A stretch of DNA of 49,030 nt, the filler included, from Jimgerdemannia flammicorona (lineage: Eukaryota): NCBI GenBank assembly GCA_003990765.1. It is 2 parts of 2 records of this genome, joined end to end, with 100 filler letters (N's around TTAATTAATTAA, not from the genome) between each part and the next. Parts side by side here need not be neighbours in the genome. Positions count along the whole stretch, not along the records: positions 24,567 to 49,030 come from RBNJ01000971.1; 1 more part is not named here. The stretch is one strand, 5' to 3'. The notes below the pieces were generated by a model that was given only the letters and a program-made list of their open reading frames with translations, did no database searches and was not told the origin of the DNA. The position numbers were made by a program, and so were the translations under genes. This document shows positions 19,356 through 44,198 of the stretch, piece by piece; positions within the stretch are counted from its first letter, which is position 1, and each line of letters begins with the position of its first letter.

Positions 19356-22300
19356 ATGTGACTTTTCAGCTCACAAGAACCCACAGTCAAACTGGATACA
19401 TTTGATACAACACCAACCTCTGCCACTACAGAAGAACTAGTCATCACTAGCATTTAGACAGGAAGAGAAGTAATCACCTCAAGACTTGCCAACTAACCAG
19501 CATCAGAAGGATCCCAACCAGAAGCAGGAGGCAGTATAGCCTGAAATCCTCAACCAGATCAACCAGATCAACCAGACAATACAGGCAGCCCTGCCGGAGA
19601 TTTTGGAGAACTTGCATAAGAACTAGAAGATTTTATTACCTGGACCCAACACTTTACAGCCAGACACCCCACACCAGTCCCACCAATCTCACCAATAGAG
19701 CTCCTACCACAACCTCTTGCAGAACCAGAAGTAGCTCCTACAAGGATACCTAGACCTACTCCACCCCGCCCAAGAACCAGAACACCATCTTCAAGATACC
19801 CAAGCACCCCTGTCTCTAGTGATAGTTCAGAAAGTGAATCAGAATCAGAATCAGAACTTGAACCGGAATCAGAAGAAAGTGACGACGAAATGGCCACCTC
19901 ATTGCCAACCTTTGCAGGATATCCAGAGGAGGACCCCAGAGAATTCCTTGATGGAATTGAAGAAATTGCAGTCTTGAGAAACCTCTCAGATGAAAGAAAA
20001 ATCACTATCTACAAAGCCCAGCTTAGAGAACCAGCTAGAGGAATTTTCCACCAAACAGCAAACAACTCAGATTTGGAACTGGCAAGACAGATAAAAGCAG
20101 CATTCTCTGATGAGCTAGAATATGAGGCCATGGTCCACTGGCTCATCGAAAAGTATGCAGGAAATGAAACCCGCCACAAGGCTCAGGAATCCATCATAGA
20201 AATGAAGATGAATCTTGGAGAATCACCCAGGGCCTTCTTCATAAGAATCTAGAAGAGAATGCATTCTGCCGGATTCAATGCCACCAACCAAGACATCATA
20301 GGTCCAATGACCTTCATGAATGGAATTCCTCCAAATATTGCCCAGCATGTCCACACTCTAGGCATCAGAAGGTCTGAAGAGCAAGTAGATGCAGCCCAAG
20401 GATTCTTTGATGTTAGGCAAGGAACTACCTGGAGTGATCATGACAAGAAGGAAGACAAGGAAGATATCCTGGTCAAAGCCCTGCAAGGACTCCTTCAAGG
20501 ACAAGAAGGATCCAAAGAAAGAAGGCCAGCTAAGGAAGAAAAGAAGGACAGAAGTGAAATTCAAGACCTCAGCTCTAAGTTAGATCAATTGGTTGGCCAG
20601 ATTGAAAAACTCACTACAAGCGAAAATCGGAGCTACCAAGACAACAAAGGATACCCACCACAGAGGAGCCAAGGTTATCCACCAAGAGATAATAGGAATT
20701 ACCAGCAAGAAGAAAGAAGATACCCTGCCTGAGACAGAGCCCAAGTCCAATGCTTCCACTGTGGACAATTTGGACACTATGCCACTGAATGTGACAACAA
20801 AAGAAGTGACTGAAGGGACTCAGAACCACCAAACTGAAGGAATGACACCCAGTACAAGAAGACTAAAGCCCATCCTGTTGAAGATTTCGAGGAAGCAAGC
20901 AACAGTGAAGACTACAGTGACCTAGACTTGTATCCTACCAAGGTTACTATCTGAAAGACAGTCTACCCAGCAGAAAAAAGAAAGAGACCTGTGGGAAGAC
21001 CATCCAGGAACATCAGCAGAAGAATCATGCAAGAAGAAGATGAAGAACATGAGGAGGAACAAGTTGAAACACCTCTCTGAACCCCCTCACCTTTTGCGCC
21101 CAAGACAAATGAGTTGCTATCAGAAGATGAAGAAATGGAACAAGAAGAATGGGAACCTGCTGCTCCAAAGTCTAAGAAGAAGTACACCCTGAAGACCATG
21201 CCTAGGGATATTTACAATGAAGCCTGGCAGAAGATTCTAGAAGCCAAGATGGAAGTCCCTCTCCTGCAGTTCTTGCAATTGATACCAGCTGGAGTCTGAA
21301 ACAAATTGCTGAGAACCACCAGGTCTAGCACTGGCCGAGTTCCAATTCTACAGCAAGAACCAGCCTCCATCCCTGTCCAAGCAGCTGAAAGACATGTCAG
21401 CACCTACTTACATGGAGACATTGGAGGACAAAAAGCAAAAATCCTCATAGATACAGGAGCAGCTATCTGTGTCATTGCCAAACGATTCTTGGACACCCTC
21501 CAATGGCCCATTGATGGACCATCCAACCTCAGCATCATAGTAGCAGATGGAGCCTGAACTCAACCCCTTGGAGAAGTACAAAATATCACTATCTCCCTCA
21601 GACACATTCTGTTCTCTATCTCCAAAGCTGTTGTCACTGAAGCTGTCACCTATGATATGATTCTTGATACCAACTGGATGAAGGAAATGAATGCAGTTGT
21701 TGATATTGACCAACAAGTACTCAAGTTTGACTACTGAGGCAAGAAGTATAGAGTTAAGGTGACCAGCTATGAGCAATCAAAAAAGAAGAAGAAGGTCACT
21801 ATTCAAGAAGAATATGCCAGCAGTGAGGAGTCTACTACAGAAGAGGAAGAAGAATCCGAAGATGGAAATGATCCCAGACTCAATCCTCGAATTAACCTGG
21901 TGGATGACAGACAAGAAGACAATGTGTGGGCTAAGAACACCATCCCCATCACCATTGGAGCCATTGCAGGAGAAGCCAAAGGATGCCTCACATGCCTCAA
22001 GAGACATAAGTGTCCCGAGCACTCCTCCAAGGTCATGGGAACAAGGAAATCGCCTGGTGCAGCCTGCCGAGAATGCAGAAGAAAGAAGAAGAAATGCAGA
22101 CATGTTCCAGAAACACCTGCGACCAAAGCTGCAGAAATACAAGCAATTTGGGGTCAAGAATCATCTGAGGAAGAAGAAACTTCTGACCAAGAAGTTCCTG
22201 AACAAGAAGCACCTGATGAAGAAGAAGTCCCTGAACTCATCTCCTGGGATGACCCTCACTGGATACCACCTGAAGACAATGACCCCTGGAATACAGAGGA

Positions 22301-23891
22301 AGGACCCAGTACCATCACCATTATCCCTAAGAAAGAAACCCACCAAGAGAAAGCTTTCCGGCTAGGAAGATGTTTACATCAAATGGTCTTCCACTCTTCC
22401 TGAGACTACTGCTATCAGTGTCATCTGTTGGATCAACAAGAAAGACAGAGACCCCAGAGACCAGAACCCCCAACTACTCTTGCACAGTCCACCACCTTTC
22501 AAGAGGTCACTACAAGGTTACAAAGTCGATTTAGGGGACAAGGCTTCTTTACCCGGACAGAAATATACCCCTTATCTACCCTTCCTCCAACCTATGACCA
22601 AGATGGGTACCAATTCCTCAGACAACAAGAGATAAATAGCCGGGAACTTCATTTCCGAGCAATGGGATATTGTAACCATGAGAGACACCCTGATTACCGA
22701 GACTGCAGACATCAAAAGATTCACCTCAGTCATGATGTTGTAGTGCACACTTTGAAGAAAGGAGATAACCAAAGCCAGATCTGAAAAAGTCAGATTCGAA
22801 AAAGCCAGACCAAGAAGCCCGGAAAAAGAATTCTCAAGATCTACGATTTGGGAGAAGATATCCTAGCTCTCATCAGACATATAACCCGCCAAGGATGGGC
22901 AGAAGATGCCACCAACTTCATGGAAGCCCTTGACCCTACAGGAAGGAGGGGAATCAATTACCTCTGAGACCCCTCTACTGGAGCCAGATGGCCACACCTC
23001 AACCTTAGAGCTTGGAGGCTTTCCACCAGTGGAGCTTCAGCCTTAGGAAAGCCTGAACTCAGCAAGGATATTGCCCAGTATGCCCTGCTGCACCCCAAGG
23101 CCAAACCCCCAACCAAAGCTCACCCAGAGGACGTAGGATATGATCTTCACAGCCTAGAGGATGAATCTATCAAGTCTGGAAAAACCTTCATAGTCAGAAC
23201 CGGATTAGCCATGCAGCCACCTCAATGAGCCTATATTCAACTGACCTCAAGGTCCAGTCTTGCCAGACAAGCAATAACTGTAGAAGGAGGAACCATTGAC
23301 CCTGGATATACAGGAGAAATCAAGGTTATTCTATACAACAGTAGTGCAGAATGGCACCGAATTATTAGAGGACAGAAGATCGCCCAAGCAGTCTTCATGA
23401 AGGTCAAGACCCCACAGTTACAGGAAGTCTCTGAACTAACTGAAGGAACAAGACAAGCCAAGGGATTTGGAAGTTCAGACAGAAAAGAGGTATATCTCCT
23501 TCAAGTCAACCACCTCAAGAGGAATGTTCCCCAGCAAGTATACTGGCAACCAGTCAGACTGCACAAGAATCTCATCCTGGAGCCTGGAGAACAAACTACT
23601 TTCGAAATCTTTGCACCACCCGACCCCAGAAACCTTTTCTTTGAACCTAAGGAAGATATCCCACACCTAGACATAGAGGGACACACATTCCCTAACAAGA
23701 TGAATCCAGTACACTCCTGAGCAACCAACCAAAGTTGGGAGACCATCATCCTGCCAAAAGGAACTATCATAGGACATCTGGTGCCTTTCCTCAACTGAAC
23801 TCATAGGGAAGTTTATGAACTAAACCTATTGGGAAATGGCAAAAGGTCCCAGAAGAAAGGAAAGGCCCCTCTGCGACCCAGGAGACAGTGA
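19356..23891 (+). pseudogene. ORF1: Gag - CCHC - aspartic protease - Cys/His insert - dUTPase - dUTPase-like spacer (nonsense-disrupted, no frameshifts)
   Basis: ATG 19356 and ORF pieces at 19890, 20259, 21114, 21306, 21759, 22428 and 23397 all lie in one frame. Motifs: knuckle CFHCGQFGHYATEC (20751-20792), ILIDTGAA protease (~21440-21465). Confidence 0.9.
23070..23480 (+). pseudogene. dUTPase domain of the young gypsy element
   Basis: All five trimeric dUTPase motifs: VGYDL, SRSSLA, GTIDPGYTG, KIAQ, RQAKGFGSS. One TGA at ~23226. Confidence 0.95.
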
Positions 23892-26796: not shown

Positions 26797-27885
26797 CTAT
26801 GAACTCCACTGAGACTGCCATGCGTCTATACAATCCTCCGCGCACCATAACCATACTTTTTCAATGTGGTACCACGCACGCTCAAACGTGGGATTCTGCA
26901 ACGCGAGAATTACGTCTTCGCGTGAGCCCTTGTGGTACGGGAATCTGAGCCTTTTGAGCCCCTCGCTCGCGCCGACTACCAGCCGGACGAAGCGGAGTGG
27001 GACCTGGGTGCTGCGTAAGTGGAGCGTTCTGAGATGACGCAGGCTGACAGCCGTCTCATCAGGAATGTCGATCGGGATTTCGCCGTATGGGAGCGCGCCG
27101 ACCTCGAGGTAGAGGCGTAGATGGGCGAGGTTCGGGCAGTTGAAGAGGAGGTACTTGAGGAGGTCGGAGAGGACCGGGGTGTGGTTAATATTGAGACCAT
27201 AGCTGCCTAGAAGGAGGGAGTCGAGGTTTTGCCAGGATTGCGTTATGTTTATTACGTGGGGTAGGACTTCATTGCCGGTGATGTGCGCCTTGGTGATGTG
27301 GGGGCACTGCCGAAAGGCTCTTGTTGCGTCTTCGTCGAACTTCACGTCGTGTAAACGAACGATCCGCAAGTTGTCTCTGAGCGCCTTGATGAGTGGGTGG
27401 ACGCACACGCCCTCCAGCGTGAGTTGGGAGACGTTCTGGCAAAACGGCAGGATACGCGAGACGGTGCCCTCGTAGTTCAGGAATTTCTTGAAGGCAAGCT
27501 CTCTAGAGCCCTGAGCTAGTATCTCCATTAGTTCCCATGAACTCGACGAGAAGCATACACGAATTTTGTCAAAGGTCGTCAACCCTAGCCGGCGCGTCTC
27601 CTGCACGAGCTTCCGGAATCGGTCTACTTCCTCCAACTTCGGTTGCCGGAACGTCAGAGCCCGCTCGAGGCTCGAGAAGGAGATGGCGGCAGTGGCGAAA
27701 GGGTACCACGATTTGCAAACAAGGGAGCAAGACAGCAGGTCTAGTTGGAGGTCGCCGTACGTTGAGGAGACAGGCATGAGGGGTTTGAAGAATTCATTTA
27801 GAATTTCAGGTGGAATGTGGGCGGGTGGGGTCGCTTCTGTTGGATTCGGGAGGAAACCATCGTTTGAATGTGTTGAGGGAGACAT
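26797..27885 (-). CDS. F-box protein with C-terminal leucine-rich (RNI-like) repeats
   Basis: Long uninterrupted ORF. F-box signature IPPEILNEFFK..DLLSCSLVCKSWY; LRR-like CQNVSQLTL, CPHITKAHI, CPNLAHLRL, LRHLRTLHL. The first ATG (MSPSTH) at 27885 is taken as the start. Confidence 0.88.
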   Translation of the reverse strand: MSPSTHSNDGFLPNPTEATPPAHIPPEILNEFFKPLMPVSSTYGDLQLDLLSCSLVCKSWYPFATAAISFSSLERALTFRQPKLEEVDRFRKLVQETRRLGLTTFDKIRVCFSSSSWELMEILAQGSRELAFKKFLNYEGTVSRILPFCQNVSQLTLEGVCVHPLIKALRDNLRIVRLHDVKFDEDATRAFRQCPHITKAHITGNEVLPHVINITQSWQNLDSLLLGSYGLNINHTPVLSDLLKYLLFNCPNLAHLRLYLEVGALPYGEIPIDIPDETAVSLRHLRTLHLRSTQVPLRFVRLVVGASEGLKRLRFPYHKGSREDVILALQNPTFERAWYHIEKVWLWCAEDCIDAWQSQWSS

Positions 27886-28899: not shown

Positions 28900-29235
28900 C
28901 CCAGGCCTCTCATCAATCGGCAAGTACCAGCCCCACCGATCTCACCCATCCAACTTCAAAACCCTACACTATGCATATATTGACTCAACAATCTTCAAAT
29001 CACCATCGAATTCCGCCCGCCTGCCCATAGCCACTAGCCTCTCATCCTTGGACGCGGTCATTCTATTGCGCACGTCGCACGCACGAATTAGCATGTGCGA
29101 GTTCAACTGGCAGAACCACTTTCGGAATAGATGCTCCCCGACCAACGTCGCAATGTTCGCCGACCGCACCGCCAGTCACGCTGTGTCTGGATCACGGCCC
29201 TCTCCGCCTATCCCGCCAGTCTCGGCGAGCTGGGC
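28900..29235 (+). pseudogene. Probable F-box N-terminal fragment (other copies ~34990-35350, 40850-41100, 41680-41900)
   Basis: Repeated block (ATCTTCAAA..C(G/A)AxTCCAACTGG..AATGTTCGC). The copy at ~40915 reads MSDTHLPSKLL / QTIFKILVRLHLLIVASLSHPW, which resembles an F-box. Confidence 0.45.
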
Positions 29236-29576
29236 AGTGGGAAACTATGTTTTGAAGGCGTAGCTGGCGTCCCCCCCCCCCGAAATGGGACCTCCCACGG
29301 ACATTGTTTGGGGTGGCATCATTCTTTGTCTATATTGTGGTTCCCCCGTAGGACAAGGTGATGAAAACAGTTTATTCCGAATGACACCGCCTACATATCG
29401 GGAGTGGTCCCGATCAGCCGCAACTGTTCCGGATCAAGTCTGATTTCCGGACTTCCTGTCCCGGATTATCACGGGATCAAGTTTTGGTCCCGGACCAAGG
29501 CCATCCCTGTCACGGGATTGATCTCAGGTATAAAAGCAAGTCTGATTTCCTGTCCCTATCGTAACTCATCCTCCCT

Positions 29577-30281
29577 ATGTCTCAAGAAATCGAATGTGGG
29601 CCATTCAACGGGCCTTTTAATTCCGGTCTAGCTTACCTTCATAACAATACACTACCCCATTTCAGGTATCTCCGCTGCCCTTATCCAACCTGTCCAAACA
29701 CTTTCAGCAGAATGGACATCCTTCAAGGCCACCTCAAACTGGAAACTCACGACAGCCTGCCACCAAATGGCGTCCTGATGGACCTGGTACCAAACGACAT
29801 ATTGATCGATGGAAGCACATCCGACCAAACATCCATTTTCCAATCTCATGGTGACCCACAGCCTCATGAAGATATACACACCCCCTTCGATGTCCTCCAA
29901 GCGTTCACCAACACAGAAATCCTTACCGACGTATACGTAGATGGTGACGTCATCGACCAAGCAACGTTCAATCCAGGGCCGACTTTTCCGTATCTCAGTC
30001 AACATAGCTCCGCTTTTCATGCCGATGGTGCGCCATACCCGCCGACCACGACCATCGCCCTTACACCTGATCCTGCGCAGCACAAACAGTGTTCTGACTG
30101 CTTTAAGAGGAAAAAGCGGTGTCACCTTCACATCACCAACAAGGCCGCTAAGCGGACTCCACCAGGAAAGGCATGCATCTGGTGCCGAATTGACAAGAAG
30201 CGATGTCAGGGCAACCCTTGTACTCGTTGCCTTTATCACGGCAGGTTTTGTTTCGGGAGCCGTACCTATCCTACTGCATGA
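29577..30281 (+). CDS. Small zinc-finger protein: C2H2 + CxxCx6CxxH + Zn(II)2Cys6-like cluster (copy Z1, intact)
   Basis: 234-aa ORF with CPYPTC-x12-H-x5-H, CSDCFKRKKRCHLH and CIWCRIDKKRCQGNPCTRCLYHGRFC. TATAAAA at 29529; AATAAA run at ~30376. Confidence 0.85.
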   Translation: MSQEIECGPFNGPFNSGLAYLHNNTLPHFRYLRCPYPTCPNTFSRMDILQGHLKLETHDSLPPNGVLMDLVPNDILIDGSTSDQTSIFQSHGDPQPHEDIHTPFDVLQAFTNTEILTDVYVDGDVIDQATFNPGPTFPYLSQHSSAFHADGAPYPPTTTIALTPDPAQHKQCSDCFKRKKRCHLHITNKAAKRTPPGKACIWCRIDKKRCQGNPCTRCLYHGRFCFGSRTYPTA

Positions 30282-31306
30282 AGGCTCGGTACGATTAGTT
30301 GCCCCAACATCCTCCATCACAGATTAGTGCAACTTCGCTCAATTTTCCTTGTTGTAGTAGCTTATATTATTTAGGAATAAATAAATAACCAGTTTATTAT
30401 CTCGAACGTGCTATCTACTTCACGTGGACGTGTGGAAGCGCGGCGATTCTATATAATATATCGCTAATCCTTACTAACCCTGAGGTCCTCGTTTTGAAAT
30501 TCGACATCTACGATTACCACAATCCTATGTCTGAATCTCACTGAACTACCGGATCGCCGCCGAGGGCGCCCTCAGGCAACTTGTCTTCGTACCCATGGCC
30601 CCATCTTTAGTTCTCCGACCACTTTTTGGCCGACTGCACGTTCCCTCCATTGTCTGATCATCTTCAATCCTGAGCAGATGGTGGATAGGTCAGGGGAGTG
30701 ATGGATCTGGGCAGATGAAGGGACCCGAGGACACATCCGCGCCTTGCCTTGTGCACGCACTCGAGCTTAAGCCGCTCGCACCGATTGCATGGGCCGTCGT
30801 CGTTGCCACCCATGTCGGGCACGCACCTTCGTCGCAGGCCTAGCAGAGATTGTTGCAGTTGCTGAGTTATTTTTGTAGTGCCTATTCAGGTGAGAGTTTG
30901 AAGCATGAAAAATCGTTTCTGGCCTTGTTTGGAGTGACGTCACGACCACAGAACGCCACTGAGGCTCACGCAGCCAATATTGAATTGAACTGGATCTTAG
31001 ACAGACATGGCCCGGAATACGGTGAGTGACCCAAACGGGGCCCGCTCGGCTAGAGGTCCATGGGAAAAAATGACAGCCCAGCTAGAATGCCATGGGGTTC
31101 CGGACGCGCGGCGGTCAGGCTCGCCCATAGGGGCGCCGGGTGCCGAGGGAGGAGGGTTCGGTCAGCCGCTTGATATTGCAAACCCTAACACGCATAGGCA
31201 TTACCGGCTTTACGTAACGCAGGAAACTGGGCTGATCGATTCCTCTTTTCGAGCAAGCTCAACATGGACCCTACCAAAGGTGTGCACCGTCTTACCCGGA
31301 TCAACT

Positions 31307-31340
<34 letters not shown>

Positions 31341-31487
31341 CTAAACCTCTACGTAGGGCCCTCCCCTGGGTGGCGCATAATATGGGCATCAATAATTATC
31401 TGAAACGCGGAGCGAATTTGCTCTATTTAACCCCAAATTTTACCGCCGCTCTGATTCAGATCACTCACCCTCGTAATTTTTCCTCCC

Positions 31488-32143
31488 ATGTCTCAAGAAA
31501 TTGGCTGTGGGCTTAATATGCCTTTTGATTCCAGCCTAGCTCATCTCCCTCACAACAACCGACTACCTCATTCCATCCTACCACCCCGGCATCTCCGCTA
31601 CCATTTTTCAACCTGTCCAAACACCTTCAGCAGAATGGACATACTTCAAGTTGAAAATTCACGGCAGCCTGCCACCGAATGGCGTCCTGACGATCGATGA
31701 AAGCACATCCGATCACACACTTATCTTATAGTGACCCACAGCCTCATGAAGATATACACACCTCCTTCGATGTCCTCCCAACACAGAATCCTTACCGACG
31801 TATACGTAGATGGTGATGTCATCGATCAAACAGTGTTCAATCCAGGGCCGACTTTTCCGTATCCCAGTCAACATATCTCCTCCGCTTTTCACGCCGACGG
31901 TGCGCCATACCCGCCGACCACGACCATGACCGCCGCCCTCACACCCGATCCTGCGCAGCACAAACAGTGTTCCAACTGCTTTAAGAAGAAAAAGCGGTGT
32001 CGCCTTCACATCGCCAACAAGGCCGCTAACCGGACTCCACCTGGAAAGGCATGCACCTAGAATTGACAAGAGACAACCCTTGTACTCGTTGCCTTTATCA
32101 CGGCAGATTTTGTTTCGGGAGTGGTACCTATCCTACTGCATGA
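31488..32143 (+). pseudogene. Zinc-finger family copy Z2 (frameshifts, deletions, stop in cluster)
   Basis: MSQEIGC start and YPTA* end are conserved. The ORF is split, with a stop after GKACT. Confidence 0.85.
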
Positions 32144-33253
32144 AGGCTCGGCACGATTAGTTGGCCCCAACAACAGCCTCCATTATAGATTAGTGAACTT
32201 CGCTCAAATCTCCTTGTTTTATTAGTTTATATTATTATTAAGAATAAATAAATAACCTGTTTATTAGCTTGAATATGCTATTATTACTAGTGGAGTGGCG
32301 CCATGCACGTGGGAACGCAACGATTCTATATTACCACAACCCCCTGTCCGAACCTCACTGAGCTCGAGCGACAGAGCCGGTGTGGGGAAACCGTCGAAGA
32401 TCTCGTGTAGAACCCATGAAGTAGGTAGAGGAGGGCTCGTACATGATGACCTGTGTCCGCTCGGCGGTCTATGGAGTGAGGAGGGAGGCAGGTCGAAGTC
32501 GCCGAAGATGGACTGCTCGGACGAAGAGACAGTGCTCACGGTGTCAGTAACGTTGCTATAGAGTTCATAGAAGGGGCCTTCTCGGACTCGGCTGGCCAGG
32601 GCAGGGCGGGGCATGGTGGTGGGTGTTAAGCATGAGGTTCTGGTTGAGCTATTATTGTGCGGAGGCGCCTCGAACTGTTGTTGCTGCTGTTGTTAGCGCA
32701 GGTCGTGTTCTTGGAATGCGGAATGGTGGTAGCAGGCAGGGCAGCGAAGCGGGCGGCGGGCTGGGAGGCTGTGTCCCGATGACGCAAAACCCTTTTGAGA
32801 ATCAGACGTTGGTCACGGGAAAATCACGTGATAAATTACTCGTGCAATTCGCATAAAAGGGAGTGACGTCATGACACAGGGCATGTTTTTTTTTTTTTTT
32901 TGGAATGTAATAAATAAAAGAAAGCACTATTATTTGCAGGCACTGGCTTCAGGAATGGCAGGGTTATAGAAAGGTAGCAAGTAGTGAGCGAAATGGCAGT
33001 GGGTACATGTATGCAGGCCGTCAAACTAACCTATAGTACTAATATATGGTTTCTAAGACGATTCCGGATTTATACAAAGTACATAATACAGGAGCTAACC
33101 TGTCTGAGGGAACTCAGCCAGCTTGGGGTGGGAAAATCTGATACCCTATGAGGCGGCCACTTTTAAAATGTTACGCTCTGGTGGCTTAAGTATGACTAAA
33201 AAACGTATCCCATTTGCGGAAATAGAAGTCACAAGGAGGCTGCTCGGTGGATA

Positions 33254-33304
33254 AAAGTCTGATTTCCTTTTTTTTTTTTTTTTTTTTTCCAAAGTCTGAT
33301 TTCC
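33254..33304 (-). mobile_element. Poly(A)-only retro-insertion with 14-bp target-site duplication
   Basis: AAAGTCTGATTTCC (33254-33267), T21CC, AAAGTCTGATTTCC (33291-33304). The paralogous site upstream of Z1 has one copy and no T run. Confidence 0.7.
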
Positions 33305-33330
33305 TGTCCCTGTCGTAACTCATCCTCTCT

Positions 33331-34017
33331 ATGTCCCAAGAAATTGCCTGTGGGCCATTCAATGTGCCTTTTCTTCATAACAATCTACTACCCCATTCCA
33401 GGCATCTCCGCTGTCCTTATTCAACCTGTCCAAACACCTTCAGCAAAATTGACATTCTTCAAGATCACCTCAAGTTGGAAACTCACAACAGCCTGCCACC
33501 GAATGGCGCACTGACGAACCTAGTACAAAACGACACATCGATCGATGGAAGCACATCCGACCACACACTTATCTTCCAACCTCATTGTAACCTGCAGCCT
33601 TATAAAAATATACACATCCCCTTCGATGTCCTTCAAGCGTTCATCAACACGGAAGCCATTCCCGACGCATACGCAGGTGGTGACGTCATCGACCAAACCA
33701 TGTTCAATCCAGGGCCAACTTCTCCGTATCCCTGTCAACATCTCTCCGTTTCCAATGCCGGTGGTGCGCCACAACTACCAACCACAACCACCACCCTCAC
33801 ACCCGATCCTGTGCAGCACAAACGGTGTTCCGACTGCTTTAAGAAGAAAAAGCGGTGTCCCCTTCACGCCGCCATCAAGACCGCTAAGCGGACTCCGCCA
33901 GGGAAAGCATGCACCTGGTGCAGAATTGACAAGAAGCGATGCCAGGGCATCCCTTGTACTCGTTGCCTTTATCACGGCAGGTTTTGTTTCGGGAGCCGTG
34001 CCTATCCTACTGCATGA
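33331..34017 (+). CDS. Zinc-finger family copy Z3 (intact, 228 aa)
   Basis: Full-length paralog of Z1 with all Cys/His ligands. Confidence 0.85.
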   Translation: MSQEIACGPFNVPFLHNNLLPHSRHLRCPYSTCPNTFSKIDILQDHLKLETHNSLPPNGALTNLVQNDTSIDGSTSDHTLIFQPHCNLQPYKNIHIPFDVLQAFINTEAIPDAYAGGDVIDQTMFNPGPTSPYPCQHLSVSNAGGAPQLPTTTTTLTPDPVQHKRCSDCFKKKKRCPLHAAIKTAKRTPPGKACTWCRIDKKRCQGIPCTRCLYHGRFCFGSRAYPTA

Positions 34018-36109
34018 AGGCTTGGCGCAACTAGTTGGCCCCAACAGCCTCCATTACAGATTAGTGAGCTTCGCTCAATTCTTCTTGTTGTATCAGCTTA
34101 TATTATTTAAGAGTAAATAAATAACCAGTTTATTATCTCGAACGTGCTATTCTATTTCACGTGGAGTGGCGCCAGACGTCTCACACACATGGAAGCGTGG
34201 TGATTCTGTATAACATATCGCTAATCCCTTCTAATCCTGAGGTCCTCGTTTTGAAATTTGACATCTACGATCACCACAATCACATATCCGAATCTCACTG
34301 AGCTACCGGATCGCCCGCCAAGGGCGCCCTCAGCCAACCTGTCTTCGTATCCACGGCTTGGACGCCTCGACATCTTCAGTTCGCCTACTGCTTTCTGGCC
34401 GACTGCACGTTCCCTCCATCGTCTGATCATATTCAATCCTGAGCAGACGACGGATGGGCCAGGGGAGTGACGGATCTGGGCAGATGGAGGGACCCGAGGA
34501 CACGTCCGGCACTTCTTCTTAGTACTTTAGTATTGCCAAACTATATTTAAAAATTATTAACTTCTCTCTATTTTGCGGCCATTGGTCGGGCGGGACGAGG
34601 CGCCGTCAAGGCGTGAAGGAAAGGTGTCTTGGGTTGACGTGGTGCCAGCTGGGAAGCGGGCGATGGAATGTGGGCTGGGAGCAGCACGATGGTTTGAGGT
34701 TGATGTGAATCTGATTATCCAATAGATTTGCTATATTTAAGAGGTGAGGTAGATCCATCCGATGTTTGGGTCGTGGTCGTGAAGAATGGAACACCTTTTA
34801 ATGCGCAGAGAAAAGCAATTTACAGTCTTCAAAAAAAAAAAAAAAAAAAAGCTACTGCTCCTCTCTTGTACCAGATTCTATTTGATCAACTTTAACAATA
34901 CTATTGAACAAAATGAAATAGAAAAAAACTCTTCATGTTTTCCCACAATGGGCAGGCCGCTCATAAATCTACAAGATTTGCTACCTATCACAAGCTCCAC
35001 CGACCTCACCCATTCAACCTCAAACCCTACGCCATCCTCCTCCAACGACCATGCCATGCACATCAGACACACATCCTCCTTCCAAATCCCGCCTCCTTAC
35101 CCGGACGATCTTCAAAATCCTCGTCAGATTTCGCCTGCCCATAGCCCCTCGCATCCTTGGAGGCGGCCATTCTATTGTGTACGAATTAGCACATGCGAAT
35201 CCAACTGGTAGAACCCCTTCCGCAATAGATGCTCCCCGACCAACGTCGCAATGTTCGCTGACAGCACGCAGATCGCCAACAGTCGCATAGCTAGTCGCAC
35301 TGTGTCTGGGTTACGGTCCTCTCCCTCCGCCCCCCCCCCTCGCCTGTCGCGCCCTAGGTGACGGGTAGGAATTGCGAGTGCACGAGAAGCCAGCACGCAT
35401 AAAAACATAGCGCGTACGGGTCCATCACTTTCAGGTCCTCGGGCGATAGGCACTGGAATACGTGTGACGCAGATGGCAGTCGGGAGCCACACATACCACC
35501 AGTACAGGCAGTCGTCGACGATGGTAGTAGCGTCCATCGAAAGTCGGTCTGGCAGCTGGGCAAAGACAAAGCGCAGGTCAGTAAACTCGTCCTTGTTCTA
35601 GCTAGATACAGCCGGTAGCCCTCCTCCAACGGAAATTCGGTGCCAGTTACCAGCCTTATCGCCTGCACTTCCTTCTCAAGCGACGCCAGCTGTCGCTGAA
35701 GCTTTGCGACGTCCTCGATCATCCGCGCCTTGCCTCCACACACTCGAACTGCTCGCACCAGTCGCACGGACCGGGCACGCACCTTCGTCACAGGGTCGTT
35801 TCTGGCCTTGCTTGGAGTGATTTTTTGTTTTTAAAAAATAATCGCGAGCCGGCGGTGGGAGACTAGAGTTATGGAAAGGTAGCAAGTATATAGATGGGGA
35901 TTGTGTAAATAAAGCCTCACGTGATCACTTACATATATGGTAATCCCCGGATCGGTGATAAAAGCACGTGAATGCGGGACTTGGTCGCTGTCAAAAACCC
36001 TCCATCTTCTGTCTGCCACCATCGCTGCCATCCCGTAAGACGGCTTTCCACAACCCTGCTGGCTACGCCTTCAGAACAGAGTTCCCACCACCATTCCTGA
36101 CCCCCAATT

Positions 36110-36563
36110 CCAAGAACACGACTCGCGCCAGCAACAGCAGCAGCAACAGCAGCAGCAACAATTCGAGGCCGCCTGCGCACAACAATAGCTCAACCCGAAC
36201 TTCATGCTTAATTCCCACCACACCGCCCTGCCCTGGGCAGCCGAGTCCGACGACGGCTCCGAAGGTCCCTTTTATGAACTCTATAGCAGCGTTTCCGACA
36301 CCGCGAGCAGTGTCTCTTCGCCCGAGCAGTCCGTCTTCGGCGACTTCGACCCTGCCGCCCTCCTCACTCCACAGACCGCCAAGCGGACACAGATCATCAT
36401 GTACGAGCCCTCCTCTACCGACTTTATGGGTTCCACCTTCGCCGACCTCCAGAACCAGATCTTAGACGGTTTCTCCACATCGGCTCTATCCCCAAATAGT
36501 TCCACCCAGAACCCTGCACACAACTCTCAGTGCGCACAACAACTGTCCCTCTCCTTCCCGTGA
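36110..36563 (+). pseudogene. PolyQ + acidic/Ser-rich gene fragment (copies at 39815-40275 minus and ~32370-32720 minus)
   Basis: QEHDSRQQQQQQQQQQFEAACAQQ*LNPNFMLNSHH..EGPFYELYSSVSDTASSVSSPEQSVFGDFDP..LSFP*. No family is recognised. Confidence 0.5.
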
Positions 36564-36789
36564 TCGCTAGAGCTCAGTGAGGTTCGGACAAGGGGTTGTG
36601 GTAATATAGAATTGTCATGCTTCCACTTGCGTGGCGCCATTCCACTAAGTAATGATAGTATGTTCGAGCTAATGAACTGGTTATTTATTTACTCTTAATA
36701 AAATAAACTGATACAACAAGGAGATTTGAGCGACGTTCACTAATCTGTAATGGAGACTGTTGTTGAGGCCAACTAGTTGTGCCGAGCCT

Positions 36790-37473
36790 TCATGCAGTAG
36801 GATAGGTACCACTCCCGAAACAAAACCTGCCGTGATAAAGGCAACGGGTACAAGGGTTTCCCTGGCATCGCTTCTTGTCAATTCTGCACCAGATGCATGC
36901 CTTTCCTGGCGGAGTCCGCATAGCGGCCTTGGTGGTGATGTGAAGGCGACACCGCCTTTTCTTCTTAAAGCAGTCAGAACACTGTTTGTGCTGCGCAGGC
37001 TCGGGTATGAGGGTGGTGGTTGTGTTCGGCGATTGTGGCGTACCGTCGGAGAGATGTTGACTGGGATACGGAGAAGTCGGTCCTGGGTTAAACATTCTTT
37101 GGTCGATGACACCGCCATCTGCGTGTATGCCGAGAAGGTTGGTGAATGCTTGGAGGACATCGAAGGGGCTGTGTATATCTTCGTGAGGCTGCGGGTTACA
37201 ATGAGGTTGGAAGATAGGTGTGTGGCCGGATGTGCTTCCATCGATCAATATGTCGTTTGATACTAGGTCCGTCAGGACGCCATTCGGTGGCAGGCTGTCG
37301 TGAGTTTCCAACTTGAGGTGATCTTGAAGGATGTCCATTCTGCTGAAGGTGTTTGGACAGGTTGGATATGGGCAGCGGAGATGCCTGGAATGGGGTAGTG
37401 GATTGTTATGAGGGTAAGCTAGGCCAGAATTAAAAGGCACATTGAACGGCCTACAGCCAATTTCTTGAGACAT
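36790..37473 (-). CDS. Zinc-finger family copy Z4 (intact, 227 aa)
   Basis: Full-length paralog with all ligands. TATAAAAG ~40 nt upstream of the ATG. Confidence 0.85.
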   Translation of the reverse strand: MSQEIGCRPFNVPFNSGLAYPHNNPLPHSRHLRCPYPTCPNTFSRMDILQDHLKLETHDSLPPNGVLTDLVSNDILIDGSTSGHTPIFQPHCNPQPHEDIHSPFDVLQAFTNLLGIHADGGVIDQRMFNPGPTSPYPSQHLSDGTPQSPNTTTTLIPEPAQHKQCSDCFKKKRRCRLHITTKAAMRTPPGKACIWCRIDKKRCQGNPCTRCLYHGRFCFGSGTYPTA

Positions 37474-38915
37474 AGGGAGGATGAGTTACGATAGGACAGG
37501 AAATCAGACTTTCTTTTATAGTGATGGCCTTGATCTGGGACAGGAGCGGTTTTGCGGCATTCTTTAAGTATCGGCTCTCGTGTGTAACCATTTCCCTGGC
37601 GGACAGCGATCCTCTCCGTCTTTCTGGGTGTGGAATGGACATTTGAACCTCGTTTCCATAACGGAAACGCAGTCTCCATCAGCCACCCAATTCTCAAGGC
37701 AAAAGTTTACACGCAGACCAGATCAGGATTGCTATTGGTTGCCACGTTGTGAACCCTAAATTGCAGACCCAGATGGCCCAGACTTGAACGCATTTGTTGT
37801 TATGGTGGCAATGTAACCTCCAGCCAGCAATCGTCCTACGACAAGATTCATTGTTTGTCGCAACATTCATGCGTCTTAGGCCCGTACACACCCGAACTGT
37901 GACGCGATTTCTTGGCGGACACATCGTAGGAAGATAGTGACTCACGAGGGAAGCCATCACTATTTTCGGTTCTTCTCCGTATACATAAATAACGCGAATC
38001 ACAGATAAGATGATGTCGTGTGCTACATGCTGAGCTTCCGTTAAATATCTTAAAAGATGGCGATAAAATCTTGAATCTGTCGTCCTGAACCGATGGATAA
38101 GGCCTGCCCTTAGTACTTTGGGCAGGATATCCACATTGGACCACCGCATTGAATTAATTTATCTTGTTTTCTACTTATATTACCTTCCTATTTCCTTTCT
38201 ATGCATTGTTTGGACAGAAAAAAAAGTGCGATGCAAACGTCAAACCGATGAACACGCCAATTTGCAAATTCCGCACAACCACAACCATCCATACCCGATC
38301 CAATATGGAAAATATAAAATACTTCCATATTGCATTTCCATTTTCCTTTTGCTCGTGCAAGTCGATTCCGCACGTCCTCGAACAGTAACTTGGATGACAT
38401 CATAGCTTGGTTACACCAGGGGAGGGGCCCTAGGCTTGGATATAGCACACCAATTTTATGACAGGCCAGCCGCGAAGGTAAAAGATCGTCAATTCTATGT
38501 ATCGTTGGTTGCACGTCCGCTGCGTCAGCGGCTGGATCGTCACGGTTTGGAGGATCCCTCTCCCGCGCCCGGTTACCCCTTCCCTTCCCAGCGAGTTGAT
38601 ACGCGTATTATACTCCTAACCATTGGCAAATCATCACATGACATACATGCCACAAAAATGGCGTGTAATCTTTTGCCTTGATTGGGTGGGTGGTGGCTAA
38701 TGGTGACTTCATTTCCGTTATGGAAACGCAGTTCAAATGTCCGTTCCACACCCAGAAAGACAGAAAGACGGAGAGGATCGATCGCTGGGTCCGCCGAGTT
38801 TACCGGTCGAGATGCAGGCGAGGAGGGATTTGGCAATTGGTGAAACAATGAAATGTTTACACACGAGAGCCGATACTTAAATAATGTCGCAAAACCGCTC
38901 CTGTCCCAGATCCCT

Positions 38916-39588
38916 ATGTCTCAAGAAATTGGCTGTAGGCCATTCAATGTGCCTTTTAATTCTGGCCTAGCTTACCCTCATAACAATCCACTGGCATCTC
39001 CGCTGCCCATATCCAACCTGTCCAAACACCTTCAGCAGAATGGACATCCTTCAAGATCACCTCAAGTTGGAAACTCACGACAGCCTGCCACCGAATGGCG
39101 TCCTGACGGACCTAGTACCAAACGACATATTGATCGATGGAAGCACATCCGACCACACACCTATCTTCCAACCTCATTGTAACCCGCAGCCTCACGAAGA
39201 TATACACAGCCCCTTCGATGTCCTCCAAGCGTTCACCAACCTTCTCGGCATACACGCAGATGGCGGTGTCATCGACCAAAGAATGTTTAACCCAGGACCG
39301 ACTTCTCCGTATCCCAGTCAACATCTCTCCGACGGTACGCCACAATCGCCGAACACAGCCACCACCCTCATACCCGAGCCTGCGCAGCGCAAACAGTGTT
39401 CTGACTGCTTTAAGAAGAAAAAGCGGTGTCGCCTTCACATCACCACCAAGGCCGCTATGCGGACTCCGCCAGGAAAGGCATGCATCTGGTGCAGAATTGA
39501 CAAGAAGCGATTCCAGGGAAACCCTTGTACCCGTTGCCTTTATCACGGCAGGTTTTGTTTCGGGAGTGGTACCTATCCTACTGCATGA
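38916..39588 (+). pseudogene. Zinc-finger family copy Z5 (inverted twin of Z4; frameshifted)
   Basis: A short deletion near 38990 shifts the frame before the C2H2. Cys to Phe (DKKRF) in the cluster. The TATA-containing segment is deleted. Confidence 0.85.
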
Positions 39589-40443
39589 AGGCTCGGCACA
39601 ACTAGTTGGCCTCAACAACAGTCTCCATTACAGATTAGTGAACGTCGTTCAAATCTCCTTGTTGTATCAGTTTATTTTATTAAGAGTAAATAAATAACCA
39701 GTTCGTTAGCTCGAACATACTATCATTACTTAGTGGAATGACGCCACGCAAGTGGAAGCATGACAATTCTATATTACCACAACCCCTTGTCCGAACCTCA
39801 CTGAGCTCGAGCGATCACGGGAAGGAGAGGGACAGTTGTTGTGCGCACTGAGAGTTGTGTGCAGGGTCCTGGGTGGAGCTATTTGGGGATAGAGCCGATG
39901 TGGAGAAACCGTCTAAGATCTGGTTCTGGAGGTCGGCGAAGGTGGAACCCATAAAGTCGGTAGAGGAGGGCTCGTACATGATGACCTGTGTCCGCTTGGC
40001 GGTCTGTGGAGTGAGGAGGGCGGCAGGGTCGAAGTCGCCGAAGACGGACTGCTCGGGCGAAGAGACACTGCTCGCGGTGTCGGAAACGCTGCTATAGAGT
40101 TCATAAAAGGGACCTTCGGAGCCGTCGTCGGACTCGGCTGCCCAGGGCAGGGCGGTGGTGGGCATGGTGGTGGGAATTAAGCATGAAGTTCGGGTTGAGC
40201 TATTGTTGTGCGCAGGCGGCCTCGAATTGTTGCTGCTGCTGTTGCTGCTGCGGGTCGTGTTCTTGGAATTGGGGGTCAGCCGCCAAGAATGGGGTGGGTA
40301 TAAGCAGACCGTCAAGCTAACCTATAGTGGGAACCCTGACGGTTACACTAGTCACGCCTCCCAGATCTTCGGGCTAATTATCTGCTCGACCAAAGCCCTA
40401 TAAAATCCTAGTTTATCACTCACCCTCGTAACTCATTCTCCCC

Positions 40444-40845
40444 ATGTCTCAAGAAATTGACTGTGAGCCATTCAATGTGCTTTTTGGTTCCGGCCTAGTT
40501 TATCTCCCTCACAATAACCCACCACCTCATTCCAGCCTACCTTCCCGGCATCTCCGCTGCCCTTATCCAACCTGTCCAAACACCTTCAGCGGAATGGACA
40601 TCCTTTCAAGTTGGAAATTCGTGACAGCCTGCCACCGAATGGCATCCTTACGGACCTAGTACCAAACGACATATTGATTGATGGAAACACATCCGACCAC
40701 ACACCTATATTCCAACCTCATTGTAACCCACAGCCTCTTGAAGATATACATGGCCCCTTCGATGTCCTCCAAGCGTTCACCAACACAGAAATCCTTCCCG
40801 GCATATACGCTGATGGCGGCGTCTTCGACCAAAGAATGTTTAATT
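40444..40845 (+). pseudogene. Zinc-finger family copy Z6 (5' part only, fused to an F-box-like fragment)
   Basis: MSQEIDC start; frameshift inside the C2H2; homology ends at DQRMFN (~40845). Confidence 0.8.
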
Positions 40846-42781
40846 CTCACCAGCCTCACCAACCACCCATCCAACCTCGAACCCTACGCCTTCCTTACCC
40901 ACCGATCCTACCAACCATGTCAGACACGCATCTGCCTTCCAAACTCCTGCCTCCTTACCCAGACGATCTTCAAAATCCTCGTCAGATTACACCTTCTCAT
41001 AGTCGCTAGCCTCTCGCATCCTTGGACGCAGCCATTTTATTGCGCACAAATTAGCATATGCAAATCCAACTGGCAGAACCACTCTTCCCGAATAGATGTA
41101 TATCGAGAGTGTCTGGCATCTTGGTAAAGACGAAGCATTGTCTGATCGCCTTCGATGGCGGATGAGCCAGGGGCGTGACAGAGCTGGGTAGAGTACCTGG
41201 AGAGGCTCGACCTCGGGCACAGTCGTTGATCGGGCGAGATTGGCATGGACAAGGCGTCCGTGCAAGCCGTCAAGGAAAGGTGCCATGGATTGATGTGGTG
41301 GCAGCTGGGAAGCGGGAAGATTTTAACAAAAAAGCTGGCGATGGAATAAGGATCTTAAGCAGCACGATGGTTTGAGGTTGCTGATATGAATCTGATTGTA
41401 GCGATGGATTTGGTGTGTATTTAGGAGGGGAGGGGAGGTGTATTCATCCGATGTTTGGACCGTGATTGTGTAGGATAAAATACTTTTACTGCGCAGATGA
41501 AAAGCAAAAGTGACGGAATTTGCAGTCTTCAGAAAAGAAAAAAGAAATTCTACTGCTCTTCTCTTGTACCCGATTCTATTACATCAACTTTAACAATTGT
41601 ATAATAATACTACTGGTCAAAATAAAACAGAAATCGCCGGGCCAGTCATCAATTCGCAAAGTCTGCTATCCATCACCAGTCCCAACGACCCTACAAACTC
41701 CACCAACGCCTTCTTACCCGGCTCAGCCCCCGCACATTTGACTCCTCAACGATCTTCAAATCCTCAGTAGGTGTGCGAGTCCAACTGGCAGAACTACTTC
41801 CGTAATAGATACTTCCCAAGCAACGTCTCAATGTTCGCCGACCGCACGCAGATTATCAACGATTCCACCGTCAGTCGCACAGTCCCCTCGCCTGTCGCGC
41901 TAGCCTCGGCAGTACGCATAAAACACAGCAACAAACCGAGCGCGTGTGGGTCCACAATCTCCAGCTCCTCGGTTGACAGCTACTGGAATACGTTCGGAGT
42001 GACGCAGAAGGTAGTCAGAACCTGCGCATACCACCGGTACAGGTAGGTGGTAGCGTCCATGTCGCTGAAGTTCTGCTACATCCTTGAACGTCCGCGCCTT
42101 GCCCTGTACACGCACCCGAGCTTAAGCCGCTCGCATCGTACCTTCGTCACCTTCGTTGGCTAGGGATTGTGATTTTGTAGGTTCACGATACATCAGTTCA
42201 GGGTCTTTCACAGAAGTAACAGAAGTAATTACAAAATCACATGATCTCAGCAATAATCCCTGCCATGCACGAGGATGTAGCAGAGCTCCAGCGATGGCTG
42301 GCGTCGCTTGAGAAGGAAGTGCAGGCAGTGAGACTGGTAACCGACGTTGACGTTTCGCCGTTGGTGCCGTTGGAGGAGGGGCTACCGGCTGTATCTTATA
42401 CCGCGAAAAAGCCGAGTTTGCTGACCTACGAACGGAACGTGCCGTCGGCCAGGAAGCGGTCGAGCAATTGAAATGCCGAAGATGGTGAGACGCTTGAGCC
42501 GTGGGCACGGAGAAGACAAGCTGACTGAGAGTGCCCTCCGACAGGTCTTGGCGGGCGGTCCCATGATCGCTCGAGCTCAGTGAGGTTCGGACATGGGATT
42601 GTTGTAAATGTTATATAATTCCACATGCGTATGTGGCTGGCTATGGTAGGCGTGAAGTAATGATAGCTAATAAAGCGGTTATTTGTTCTTAATAATATAA
42701 GCTGATACAACAAGAAGATTTGAGCGAAGCTCGCTAATTTGTAATGGAGGCTGTTTGGGGCCGACCAATTGCGGCGAAACT

Positions 42782-43409
42782 TCATGCAGTAGGATAAGTA
42801 CCGCTCCCGAAACAAAATCTGCCGTGATAAAGGCAACGAATATAAGGGCTGCCCTGGCATCGCTTCTTGTCAATTTTGCACCAGGTGCACGCCTTTCCTG
42901 GCGGAGTCCTCTTAACGGCCTTGATGGTGACGTGAAGGCGACACCGGCTTTTCTTTTTAAATCAGCCGGAACACTGTTTGTGCTGCGCAGGCTCGGGTGT
43001 GAGGGTGGCGGTTGTGGTCGATTGTTGTGACGCACCGTCGGCATGAAAAATGGAGAGATGTTGACCAGGATATGGAGAATTCGAACATTCTTTGGTCGAT
43101 GACGCCGTCATCTATGTGTACGCCGGGAATGGTGAACGCTTGGAGGACATCGAAGGGGCCGTGTATGGGTTACAATGAGCTTGGAAGATGTGTGTGTGTG
43201 GTCGGGTGTGCTTCCATCGATCAATATATCGTTTTTTACTGGGCGTCGTTCGGTGGCAGGCTGTCGTGAGTTTCCAACTTGAGGTGATCTTGAAGGATGT
43301 CCATTCTGCTGAAGGTGTTTGGACAGGTTGGAAGGCAGGATGGAAGGAAGATAAGCTAGGCCGGAATTAAAGGCACACTAAATGGCCCACAGCAAAATTC
43401 TTGAGACAT
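42782..43409 (-). pseudogene. Zinc-finger family copy Z7 (most decayed)
   Basis: ATGTCTCAAGAA start and YPTA* end. Internal deletions, and stop/substitution at Cys ligands. Confidence 0.82.
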
Positions 43410-44198
43410 AGGGAAGTGGCGAAGATGAGTGATCTGAATCTTCTATTTATACACTTAGAGCAAGATTGGGAAGCAGTGACGGATTGCTAACTCGAACAGT
43501 TCCCGACCAAAAGCAGCGCACAGAAACACGGACGGCGACCTTACTTCCGAACTACGGGAAATTATTAGATCTCCCAACATACACCCCGCATGTAACGAAC
43601 GGAGCAACCGCTTGGGAAAACCTTGCCGTCGCAGCGCCCATCAGTTATACAGCGCTTGGGACCTCTCAAAAACCCATATTACTGTTTGGTGCACCAAGTT
43701 TGTGGGAACCAGCGGCTTGCGGTTAGGATTTTCGCCACGCTGTCATAAATTTTCATTTTCGTGCTAGTTTACGGGAACGGCTCTTTTCCCATTCCCTCAG
43801 TTGAGCGATGTTATCTTTCGTCCAGTAGTCTCGACACCGTTTCCATGTCATTTCATTTGAATATCTCTGAATTATTTGTTAGTCTACGAACGGATGTGAA
43901 ATTTGTCTTTCACCAAACATTGCATGAGCTGTCATTTTAAGGTTCCTAAAACATTGGGCCCATTAACAATTATCCGGAAAACAAACAATAAACTCCATGC
44001 GCCCGTCCTTTCCAGGAGATCCATCACGCGTCGCAAACACAGAATGCAAGTTCTCATCTTTCAAATCGCGCGCCATTTTTGCCATTTTTGTGGCAATGTC
44101 TGTCACGTGATGACTTGCCAATGGTTAGGCGTCGTGAGCGCATCGTGGACAAACCGCGCGCTGGTATAATACGCGCTATCAGATTCCCGGATTGTCAC

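Follow-up and report, generated by a model that had tools for sequence, protein, structure and literature searches.

We examined 49,030 nucleotides (nt) of the Jimgerdemannia flammicorona genome (GCA_003990765.1), hereafter the window, which joins parts of two records across 100 filler Ns. Its second part (RBNJ01000971.1, from position 24,567) contains seven paralogs, Z1 to Z7, of a small intronless zinc-module gene, lying on both strands within 29577..43409. Their coding spans are pairwise 84-89% identical at the DNA level, far beyond chance. A first-pass annotation of the window had described a seven-copy cluster with three intact copies and four broken in different ways, and inspection of open reading frames (ORFs), zinc ligands and pairwise alignments confirmed this (Table 1).

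Homology between Z1 and Z3 extends ~450 nt beyond the stop codon, past the polyadenylation signal; the copies are therefore duplications at the DNA level. Z4 and Z5, which lie in the arms of an inverted duplication, are 98.8% identical over the coding span. Spread at the cluster thus proceeded by segmental and inverted duplication of DNA. The duplicated units also hold fragments of two other transcription-factor genes, W and Y. The island has a CpG observed/expected ratio (o/e) of 0.8-1.1 and sits between repeat blocks with almost no CpG.

Table 1. Features of the window (positions count along the whole window).
Feature	Position	Strand	Description
Z1	29577-30281	+	Intact, 234-residue ORF, all 14 zinc ligands
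Z1, C2H2-like finger	29676-29750	+	Followed by the linker
Z1, CxxCx6CxxH knuckle	30090-30131	+	
Z1, Zn2Cys6 cluster	30174-30251	+	
Z2	31488-32143	+	Broken: 5 frameshifting deletions, ligand losses
Z3	33331-34017	+	Intact, 228-residue ORF, all 14 zinc ligands
Z4	37473-36790	-	Intact, 227-residue ORF, all 14 zinc ligands
Z5	38916-39588	+	Recent inverted Z4 copy; 11-nt 5' deletion; third cluster Cys changed to Phe
Z6	40444-~40848	+	5' half only (3' half lost); 10-nt deletion; continues into W fragment
Z7	43409-42782	-	Most decayed: ~7 frameshifts; knuckle interrupted by a stop
Inverted duplication	36097-40279		Arms 36097-37714 (Y + Z4) and 38661-40279 (Z5 + Y), head to head; self-BLAST, 1650 columns, 91% with gaps
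Y1	36010-36563	+	Deleted copy of N-terminal part of three-finger C2H2 gene on contig C3255
Further Y copies	39815-40275, 32370-32717	-	Tail to tail with a Z copy in each case
W	34838-35868	-	Internally deleted copy (coiled coil and C-terminal part) of a canonical Gal4-type gene from contig C3002
W intron	35556-35650	-	95 nt, GT-AG; joint seen in X1, X2 and X4; present in both genomic copies
Other W fragments	28973-29205, 40898-41098, 41772-42046, 42270-42378		
Z1 upstream region	29400-29534	+	TATAAA at 29529 and local CCGGA/CGGGA word cluster
F-box-like ORF	26797-27885	-	Single, intronless, 362 residues; Pfam F-box-like 24.1 bits against cut-off 24.3; not duplicated with the cluster
Related two-half zinc module	21984-22103	+	In decayed Gypsy polyprotein, between protease and dUTPase; other contig, across the N gap

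Reading of the ORFs bore out the annotated architecture of N-terminal C2H2, linker, knuckle and C-terminal six-Cys cluster; in Z1 these are C34-x4-C39..H52-x5-H58, a 113-residue linker, C172xxCx6CxxH185 and C200..C225. Likewise, neither a dimerisation coiled coil nor a middle homology region, which the annotation had reported lacking, occurs in any member read. Two details needed correction. The linker has the length described, but it is only mildly acidic in the cluster copies (D+E 8-12%, against 16-23% in many longer relatives). The loop between the third and fourth Cys has the four residues described and reads QGNP in Z1 and Z4, but it is QGIP in Z3, and among 105 members of the family recovered genome-wide (below) it has four residues in 60 and five in 45. 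The Z ORFs end 9 residues past the last Cys, no splice leading out of the ORF appeared in RNA contigs, and the canonical Gal4-type layout was not found. In four other members (L060, L064, L065, L071) the linker is enlarged by internal repeats, with ORFs of up to ~600 residues.

The six-Cys cluster appears to be a Pho7-like Zn2Cys6 domain. Zn2Cys6 clusters (PF00172) usually have 5-12 residues between the third and fourth Cys, and Z1, Z3 and Z4 fit the corresponding spacing (CxxCx6Cx5-12CxxCx6-8C) except for their loop of four. The Pfam Zn_clus profile scored 21.0, 19.7 and 17.3 bits in the long members L106, L119 and L113, and 12 of 16 long members matched at E<=0.1. By sequence, the best solved relative was Pho7 (E 4.7e-5). 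When a model of the module was submitted to Foldseek, all listed rows were zinc-cluster proteins (best root-mean-square deviation 1.2-1.4 over ~28 residues, best E 0.11), and direct comparison of folds with Pho7 gave a weak Z of 3.3. The knuckle is a repeat of the first cluster half with His as its fourth ligand, and it carries Lys at the position of Gal4 Lys18 in 99 of 104 genes.

The accessible part of PMC6265462 describes Pho7 as binding DNA as a monomer, with Asp298, Asn299 (Gal4 Lys18) and Lys300 reading TCGG and an N-terminal arm in the minor groove. D206, K207 and K208 of Z1 stand in register with these three residues, K208 being kept in 100 of 104 genes, and a conserved R-x2-PG arm corresponds to the minor-groove arm, with its Arg present in 104/104. 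Residues outside our module filter were also retained (R 104/104, R 103/104, P 101/104, K 100/104). Of the recognition-helix triplet, 22 kinds occur among 105 genes, with DKK in 54.

The annotation had also called for a genome-wide copy count. When Z1 was searched against the organism's own genome, 655 candidates came up; 150 of them were scored and yielded 168 matches. Around nearly all of these 150 we recovered 110 distinct module frames, of which 105 are complete; they occupy 83 contigs or loci, of which 15 hold at least two, and 98 of the 105 have a Met start and at least 150 residues. Twenty further stretches yielded 19 cluster-bearing frames, 13 with the C-terminal tail described below (11 of these with a decayed knuckle) and 6 more distant and tail-less. 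The family therefore comprises at least 118 open frames, a lower bound. The ORFs are intronless and up to 631 residues long, and 37 of the 105 have an N-terminal C2H2-like finger. Median CpG o/e is 1.02, against 0.15 in the Gypsy copy of the window. TATAAA occurs within 300 nt upstream in 70 of 99 genes (22.5 expected) and CGGAAC in 33 of 99 promoters (11.4 expected), counts in which paralogous flanks are not independent. Two smaller groups were noted in passing: a clade of 11 genes (L203-L211, L220, L221) that combine Zn2Cys6 cluster and importin tail with a decayed knuckle (L209 and L211 keep remnants), 8 of them also having a C2H2-like finger, and tail-less host genes (L213-L217) whose CxxCx6CxH knuckle variant resembles the second half of the Gypsy module.

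Expression of the cluster, a further check proposed by the annotation, was examined in four sequencing runs (X1-X4), all as contigs from which strand and level are not readable; X4 is labelled RNA, and X1 and X2 were taken as RNA by guess. A gap-free 775-nt contig of X1 spans 29580-30354 (Z1) with 10 other letters; of 8 differences classified, 5 alter a residue, 3 are silent and none falls at a ligand. In X2, a 541-nt contig covers 33319-33859 (Z3) without difference and another contig covers 32298-32706 (a Y copy), while short Z3 pieces occur in X3 and X4. X1 and X2 skip the W intron as the RNA-labelled X4 does, and both genomic copies contain this intron. It follows that Z1 and Z3 (or alleles very close to them) are transcribed, without splicing. 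No contig covered Z2, Z6 or the F-box-like ORF, an absence that carries no weight.

More than half of the full-module genes (58/105) extend at least 60 residues past the cluster, forming a tail absent from Z1-Z7. A profile of these tails matched the repeats of the host importin-alpha (L156) at 61.8 bits, over their final 95 residues; 200 shuffles reached at most 7.8 and non-overlapping armadillo-repeat (ARM) windows of importin-alpha at most 6.6. Pairwise, 40 of the 58 tails matched the importin-alpha C-terminus at E<1e-3, and the likeness was also found at the DNA level (profile 86.8 bits). Pfam Arm_3 (PF16186) matched one family member, and a genome-wide search with one member recovered the importin gene at E 2.3e-9. 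Judged by these comparisons, the homology is specific to ARM9-10 and not to ARM repeats generally. Foldseek with a model of a long member placed importin-alpha in the top rows (best E 0.03, 26-28% identity); a wider fold search returned many helical-repeat proteins at Z 8-10 and did not single out importin. The grooves that bind nuclear localisation signals (NLS) presumably lie outside the captured piece. According to the accessible part of 10.1101/2021.10.25.465662, the Nup50 and CAS/Cse1 sites are located in ARM9-10, and the importin-beta-binding domain (IBB) also adds to CAS binding.

The tail may have been lost on the way to the cluster. Z genes end in FGSxTYPTA, which matches the start of the tail in one long clade and suggests truncation of a tailed ancestor, and in the protein tree they are nested among tailed genes with support of 89-91.

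To assess constraint we used our own codon-model implementation, with branch lengths fixed up to scale in site models. The ratio of nonsynonymous to synonymous rates (omega) was 0.38 for the module over 104 genes (L122 left out), and 0.32, 0.37 and 0.48 for the tail in three of five clades (p <=2e-5), indicating purifying selection. Within the Z clade, for which 11 copies could be aligned (5 intact, 6 broken, with extra partial copies on four other contigs), the linker gave 1.03-1.06 and the module 0.60-0.70. Among the five intact ORFs, the five other frames gave 0.98-1.48. The family module is thus constrained, and the clade of the cluster is near neutral.

Taken together, these results lead us to lean, by a little, towards the view that the seven copies represent one branch, confined to this locality, of a family of chimeric Zn2Cys6 transcription-factor genes that is lineage-specific and intronless, whose products would bind CGG-type sites as monomers, and that this tail-less branch is drifting. 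The full form consists of a C2H2-like finger, a low-complexity linker, a half-cluster knuckle, the Zn2Cys6 cluster and an importin-alpha ARM9-10 tail; individual branches would have lost the tail (as in the branch of Z1-Z7), the knuckle or the finger. The proteins are predicted to bind TCGG-like sites as Pho7 does, the knuckle supplying a second basic helix that would widen the footprint as a dimer partner otherwise might, and the linker may serve as activation or spacer region. In long members the tail could recruit a partner of the importin-alpha C-terminus (Cse1/CAS or Nup50) or merely cap the protein. The tail-less Z branch retains its zinc ligands and would otherwise drift and turn over.

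Several observations weigh against this interpretation. Zn_clus scores of Z1, Z3 and Z4 are 16-16.3 bits against a gathering score of 21, and most members fall below that cut-off. The module model has a predicted local distance difference test (pLDDT) score of 65, with 57-64 in the knuckle, and no fold match reaches E 0.001. That the Cys/His ligands do not vary is in part a product of the module filter. Tail omega is 0.68 and 0.86 in the remaining two of five clades, not significantly below 1. A DNA tree built from 46 selected rows does not decide this branching, a single clade of all tail-less genes not being rejected (approximately unbiased test, p 0.10), and tail remnants behind short genes were seen only in L122, a frameshifted long gene, and as 55 nt behind Z4, with none further. 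Finally, Z-clade omega is 0.77 over the five intact ORFs (p 0.08) and 0.85 with the six broken copies added (p 0.14), intact and broken tips both giving 0.89.

These last values are what would be expected if the cluster were passive, that is, a duplication-prone island of tail-less copies that are transcribed but unimportant, whose open frames are just not yet broken, with function residing in other branches. The neutral linker, the bare 5 of 11 aligned copies that are intact, the partial copies on four other contigs and the transcribed debris of W and Y in the same units fit this reading as well. However, a class of invariant codons was found solely in the true frame of the five intact Z-clade ORFs (twice the log-likelihood difference 21.2, against 0-7.3 in the five other frames), the module reached omega 0.66 (p 0.046) in one fit, and the Z1-like X1 contig is gap-free. 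Indels of the intact copies all keep the frame, whereas broken copies have up to 7 shifts, which is partly a result of choosing intact copies. We regard a passive cluster as a serious alternative but an unlikely one. The first-pass annotation had named missing expression together with a dN/dS near 1 as the sign of passive duplication; the ratio is indeed not significantly below 1 (0.77-0.85), but the cluster is expressed.

The annotation had suggested that the cluster could be a control or conflict system for transposable elements (TEs), analogous to clustered animal ZNF genes. Across the N gap, Z3 matched a Gypsy retrotransposon at 21972-22115, and alignment of profiles with hhalign gave 96% probability (E 4e-9). 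At least 150 copies of the element exist, with identities of 87-93% (1351 candidates). In a tree with few columns and long branches, its module falls outside the 105-gene clade and pairs with P0043, a distant protein of host type (support 94). The Gypsy module shares ancestry with the family, the element being neither an evident parent nor a demonstrated target. Its 5' region (18400-19080) contains ten copies of TTCCCAG, stable across 29 element copies, which could be a binding array for the element's own module; a derivation of TTCCCAG from a deaminated CGG site was rejected (CA 239, CG 2). Between the zinc module and dUTPase (22400-23100) there are more Cys/His-rich and unnamed segments.

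A TE-control or conflict system would have paralogs diversify to bind, silence or sequester transposon DNA, perhaps in competition with the Gypsy module. The genome is TE-rich with CpG-depleted repeats, the abundant Gypsy family carries a homologous module, the recognition helix occurs in 22 triplets, and site models preferred a small class above 1 (M2a, p 4e-4, omega 1.56; M8 against M8a, p 0.004, omega 1.27). This class is weak, however, and its sites fall at spacer positions (Z1 F176, N188, Q211, N213), with posterior 0.00 at D206, K207 and K208; 54 of 105 genes keep DKK. Pfam scans of family members found no known repressor domain and at most one degenerate finger, with no finger array; the Gypsy module groups outside the gene clade, and TTCCCAG is not a deaminated CGG site. 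With base-reading residues not under selection, one cluster domain per protein and no known repressor domain in those scans, the analogy is unsupported; TE control is improbable, and none of the tests run favours it. A bolder version would make the family an Endogonales equivalent of KRAB-ZNF genes: more than 100 monomeric readers, their recognition helix duplicated and the importin-alpha end that binds Cse1/Nup50 attached to them, would place bound loci (transposons among them) or the reader proteins themselves under nuclear-pore or export control, tail-less branches of the Z1-Z7 type would compete with them, and Gypsy would have taken a related module to compete for sites. We think this scenario, too, has little chance of being right.

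A selfish or mobile unit, such as a non-autonomous element, retro-copies or a drive factor instead of a host regulator, might also account for intronless ORFs of up to 631 residues (the Cse1 gene, by comparison, has 9 or more short exons), for their spread over 83 contigs or loci and for a module shared with a retrotransposon. There is a precedent in Drosophila, where duplicates of nuclear-transport genes have been linked to meiotic drive (PMC8645118, accessible part). Yet the copies keep gene-like CpG, Z1/Z3 homology past the polyadenylation signal denotes DNA-level duplication, and the cluster showed no transposase, reverse transcriptase or terminal repeat. We therefore consider this explanation very improbable.

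A profile of 34 modules run against 1.84 billion representative proteins gave 82 hits, 14 with knuckle and half-cluster in register. Among 20 of those hits looked up were 13 named J. flammicorona or Endogone proteins and 1 Guillardia cluster protein. P0019 proved identical to our locus L217 (341/341); the J. flammicorona rows are therefore distant paralogs, and their use as outgroups was wrong. None of the best 15 hits exceeded 52% identity to the 105 genes, bar one 38-residue stretch of a fragment. Protein searches with Z4 (82 candidates), a long-member alignment (8000 scored) and the L119 region (73 candidates) found no close relatives; the best Atlas score for Z4 was 0.84, with no usable hit for module plus tail, and 61 pattern hits in metagenome contigs gave no confirmed case. 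Nine family ORFs looked up by exact match were all absent, which is uninformative, as the F-box ORF used as control was missing too.

Since other genes of the species are present in the protein library, the family was probably missed by annotation; our guess at a cause is repeat masking via the shared Gypsy module. The literature searched contains no description of it, although subscription journals and supplements may hold one, and the accessible part of PMC8778642 makes no mention of it. A DNA-binding domain joined to an importin-alpha fragment and then amplified was found in no database or paper searched. We conclude that the family is real and represents a form of Zn2Cys6 factors not described before. 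It is lineage-specific and of fast turnover, as the annotation had proposed; it is transcribed, probably DNA-binding to judge from its residues, and, with at least 118 frames, no conserved single-copy gene. More than 100 constrained, TATA-bearing, regulator-like genes thus seem missing from public protein sets that hold other genes of the species, and counts of regulators in this root-associated lineage are therefore probably too low. Within the family, the seven copies make up the drifting end and are of lesser interest. The fusion raises the questions whether captured ARM9-10 still binds Cse1/Nup50 and whether fungi have a clustered, sequence-specific answer to transposons.

Around the Z copies, splicing of the W intron connects the coiled coil, over a large deletion and in frame, with the C-terminal part; it is likely a new intron that makes a small cluster-less protein. 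Donor and acceptor sit in sequence that codes in the parent gene (L167); the W RNA contigs have further indels and may derive from the copy on contig C9107. More Z copies lie on C9107, C4083, C21559 and C28340, with W also on C9107 and C4083, and positions 1-127 of C21559 are identical to 34202-34328 of the window over 127 nt; these contigs may form one larger array or another haplotype. The Z1 finger and the first finger of the Y parent are alike at 13 of 25 positions, a comparison made without control and a lead only. Over 113 nt, the region upstream of Z7 (43445-43548) matches at 82% the DNA lying upstream of the gene from which Y derives, possibly a captured promoter. CCGGA/CGGGA words immediately upstream of the Z1 TATA box reach 12 per 300 nt (shuffles 2.9, 0/500 as high) with a motif picked post hoc; they are the densest among 187 island windows (3 overlapping windows with 12, others at most 4) and missing from the other six copies, the matching word before Z4 being CCCAGA. 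A shared CGG motif across family promoters was dropped, as flanks are non-independent and the CCGGA cluster is limited to Z1.

Among known systems, Gal4/Put3/Ppr1/Leu3-type factors (PF00172) share with the family CxxCx6Cx(4-5)CxxCx6C, two predicted helices and Lys at the Gal4 Lys18 position (66/104), whereas the family members read have neither coiled coil nor middle homology region, a finger is present in 37/105 and most members score below the Pfam cut-off. The dUTPase-bearing Gypsy module has CxxC..CxxH-x7-R-x2-PG-x2-CxxCx6C in register, but its first loop has five residues, its second cluster half is missing and it groups with other host proteins. Vertebrate KRAB zinc-finger genes are large in number, clustered, evolve by birth and death and encode finger arrays. 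The family resembles them in size, clustering, birth and death, a borrowed protein-interaction domain and a TE-rich genome, and differs in having one cluster domain, no known corepressor domain and no selection signal at base-reading residues. The best tails are ~30% identical to the importin-alpha C-terminus over 90-100 residues, with DNA similarity and the same predicted fold; they comprise the last 1.5 repeats only, without IBB or NLS grooves, with the core kept and the last helix more diverged. The closest counterpart is the DNA-binding domain of S. pombe Pho7 (PDB 6o19, 6e33), with its short loop between the third and fourth Cys, basic N-terminal arm, Asp-x-Lys in register and no coiled coil. 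Its loop (Cys302-Cys308, in the accessible part of PMC6265462) is one residue longer than the four of the Z copies, and the family adds a CxxCx6CxxH half-cluster before the arm, places the cluster at or near the C-terminus and has more than 100 paralogs.

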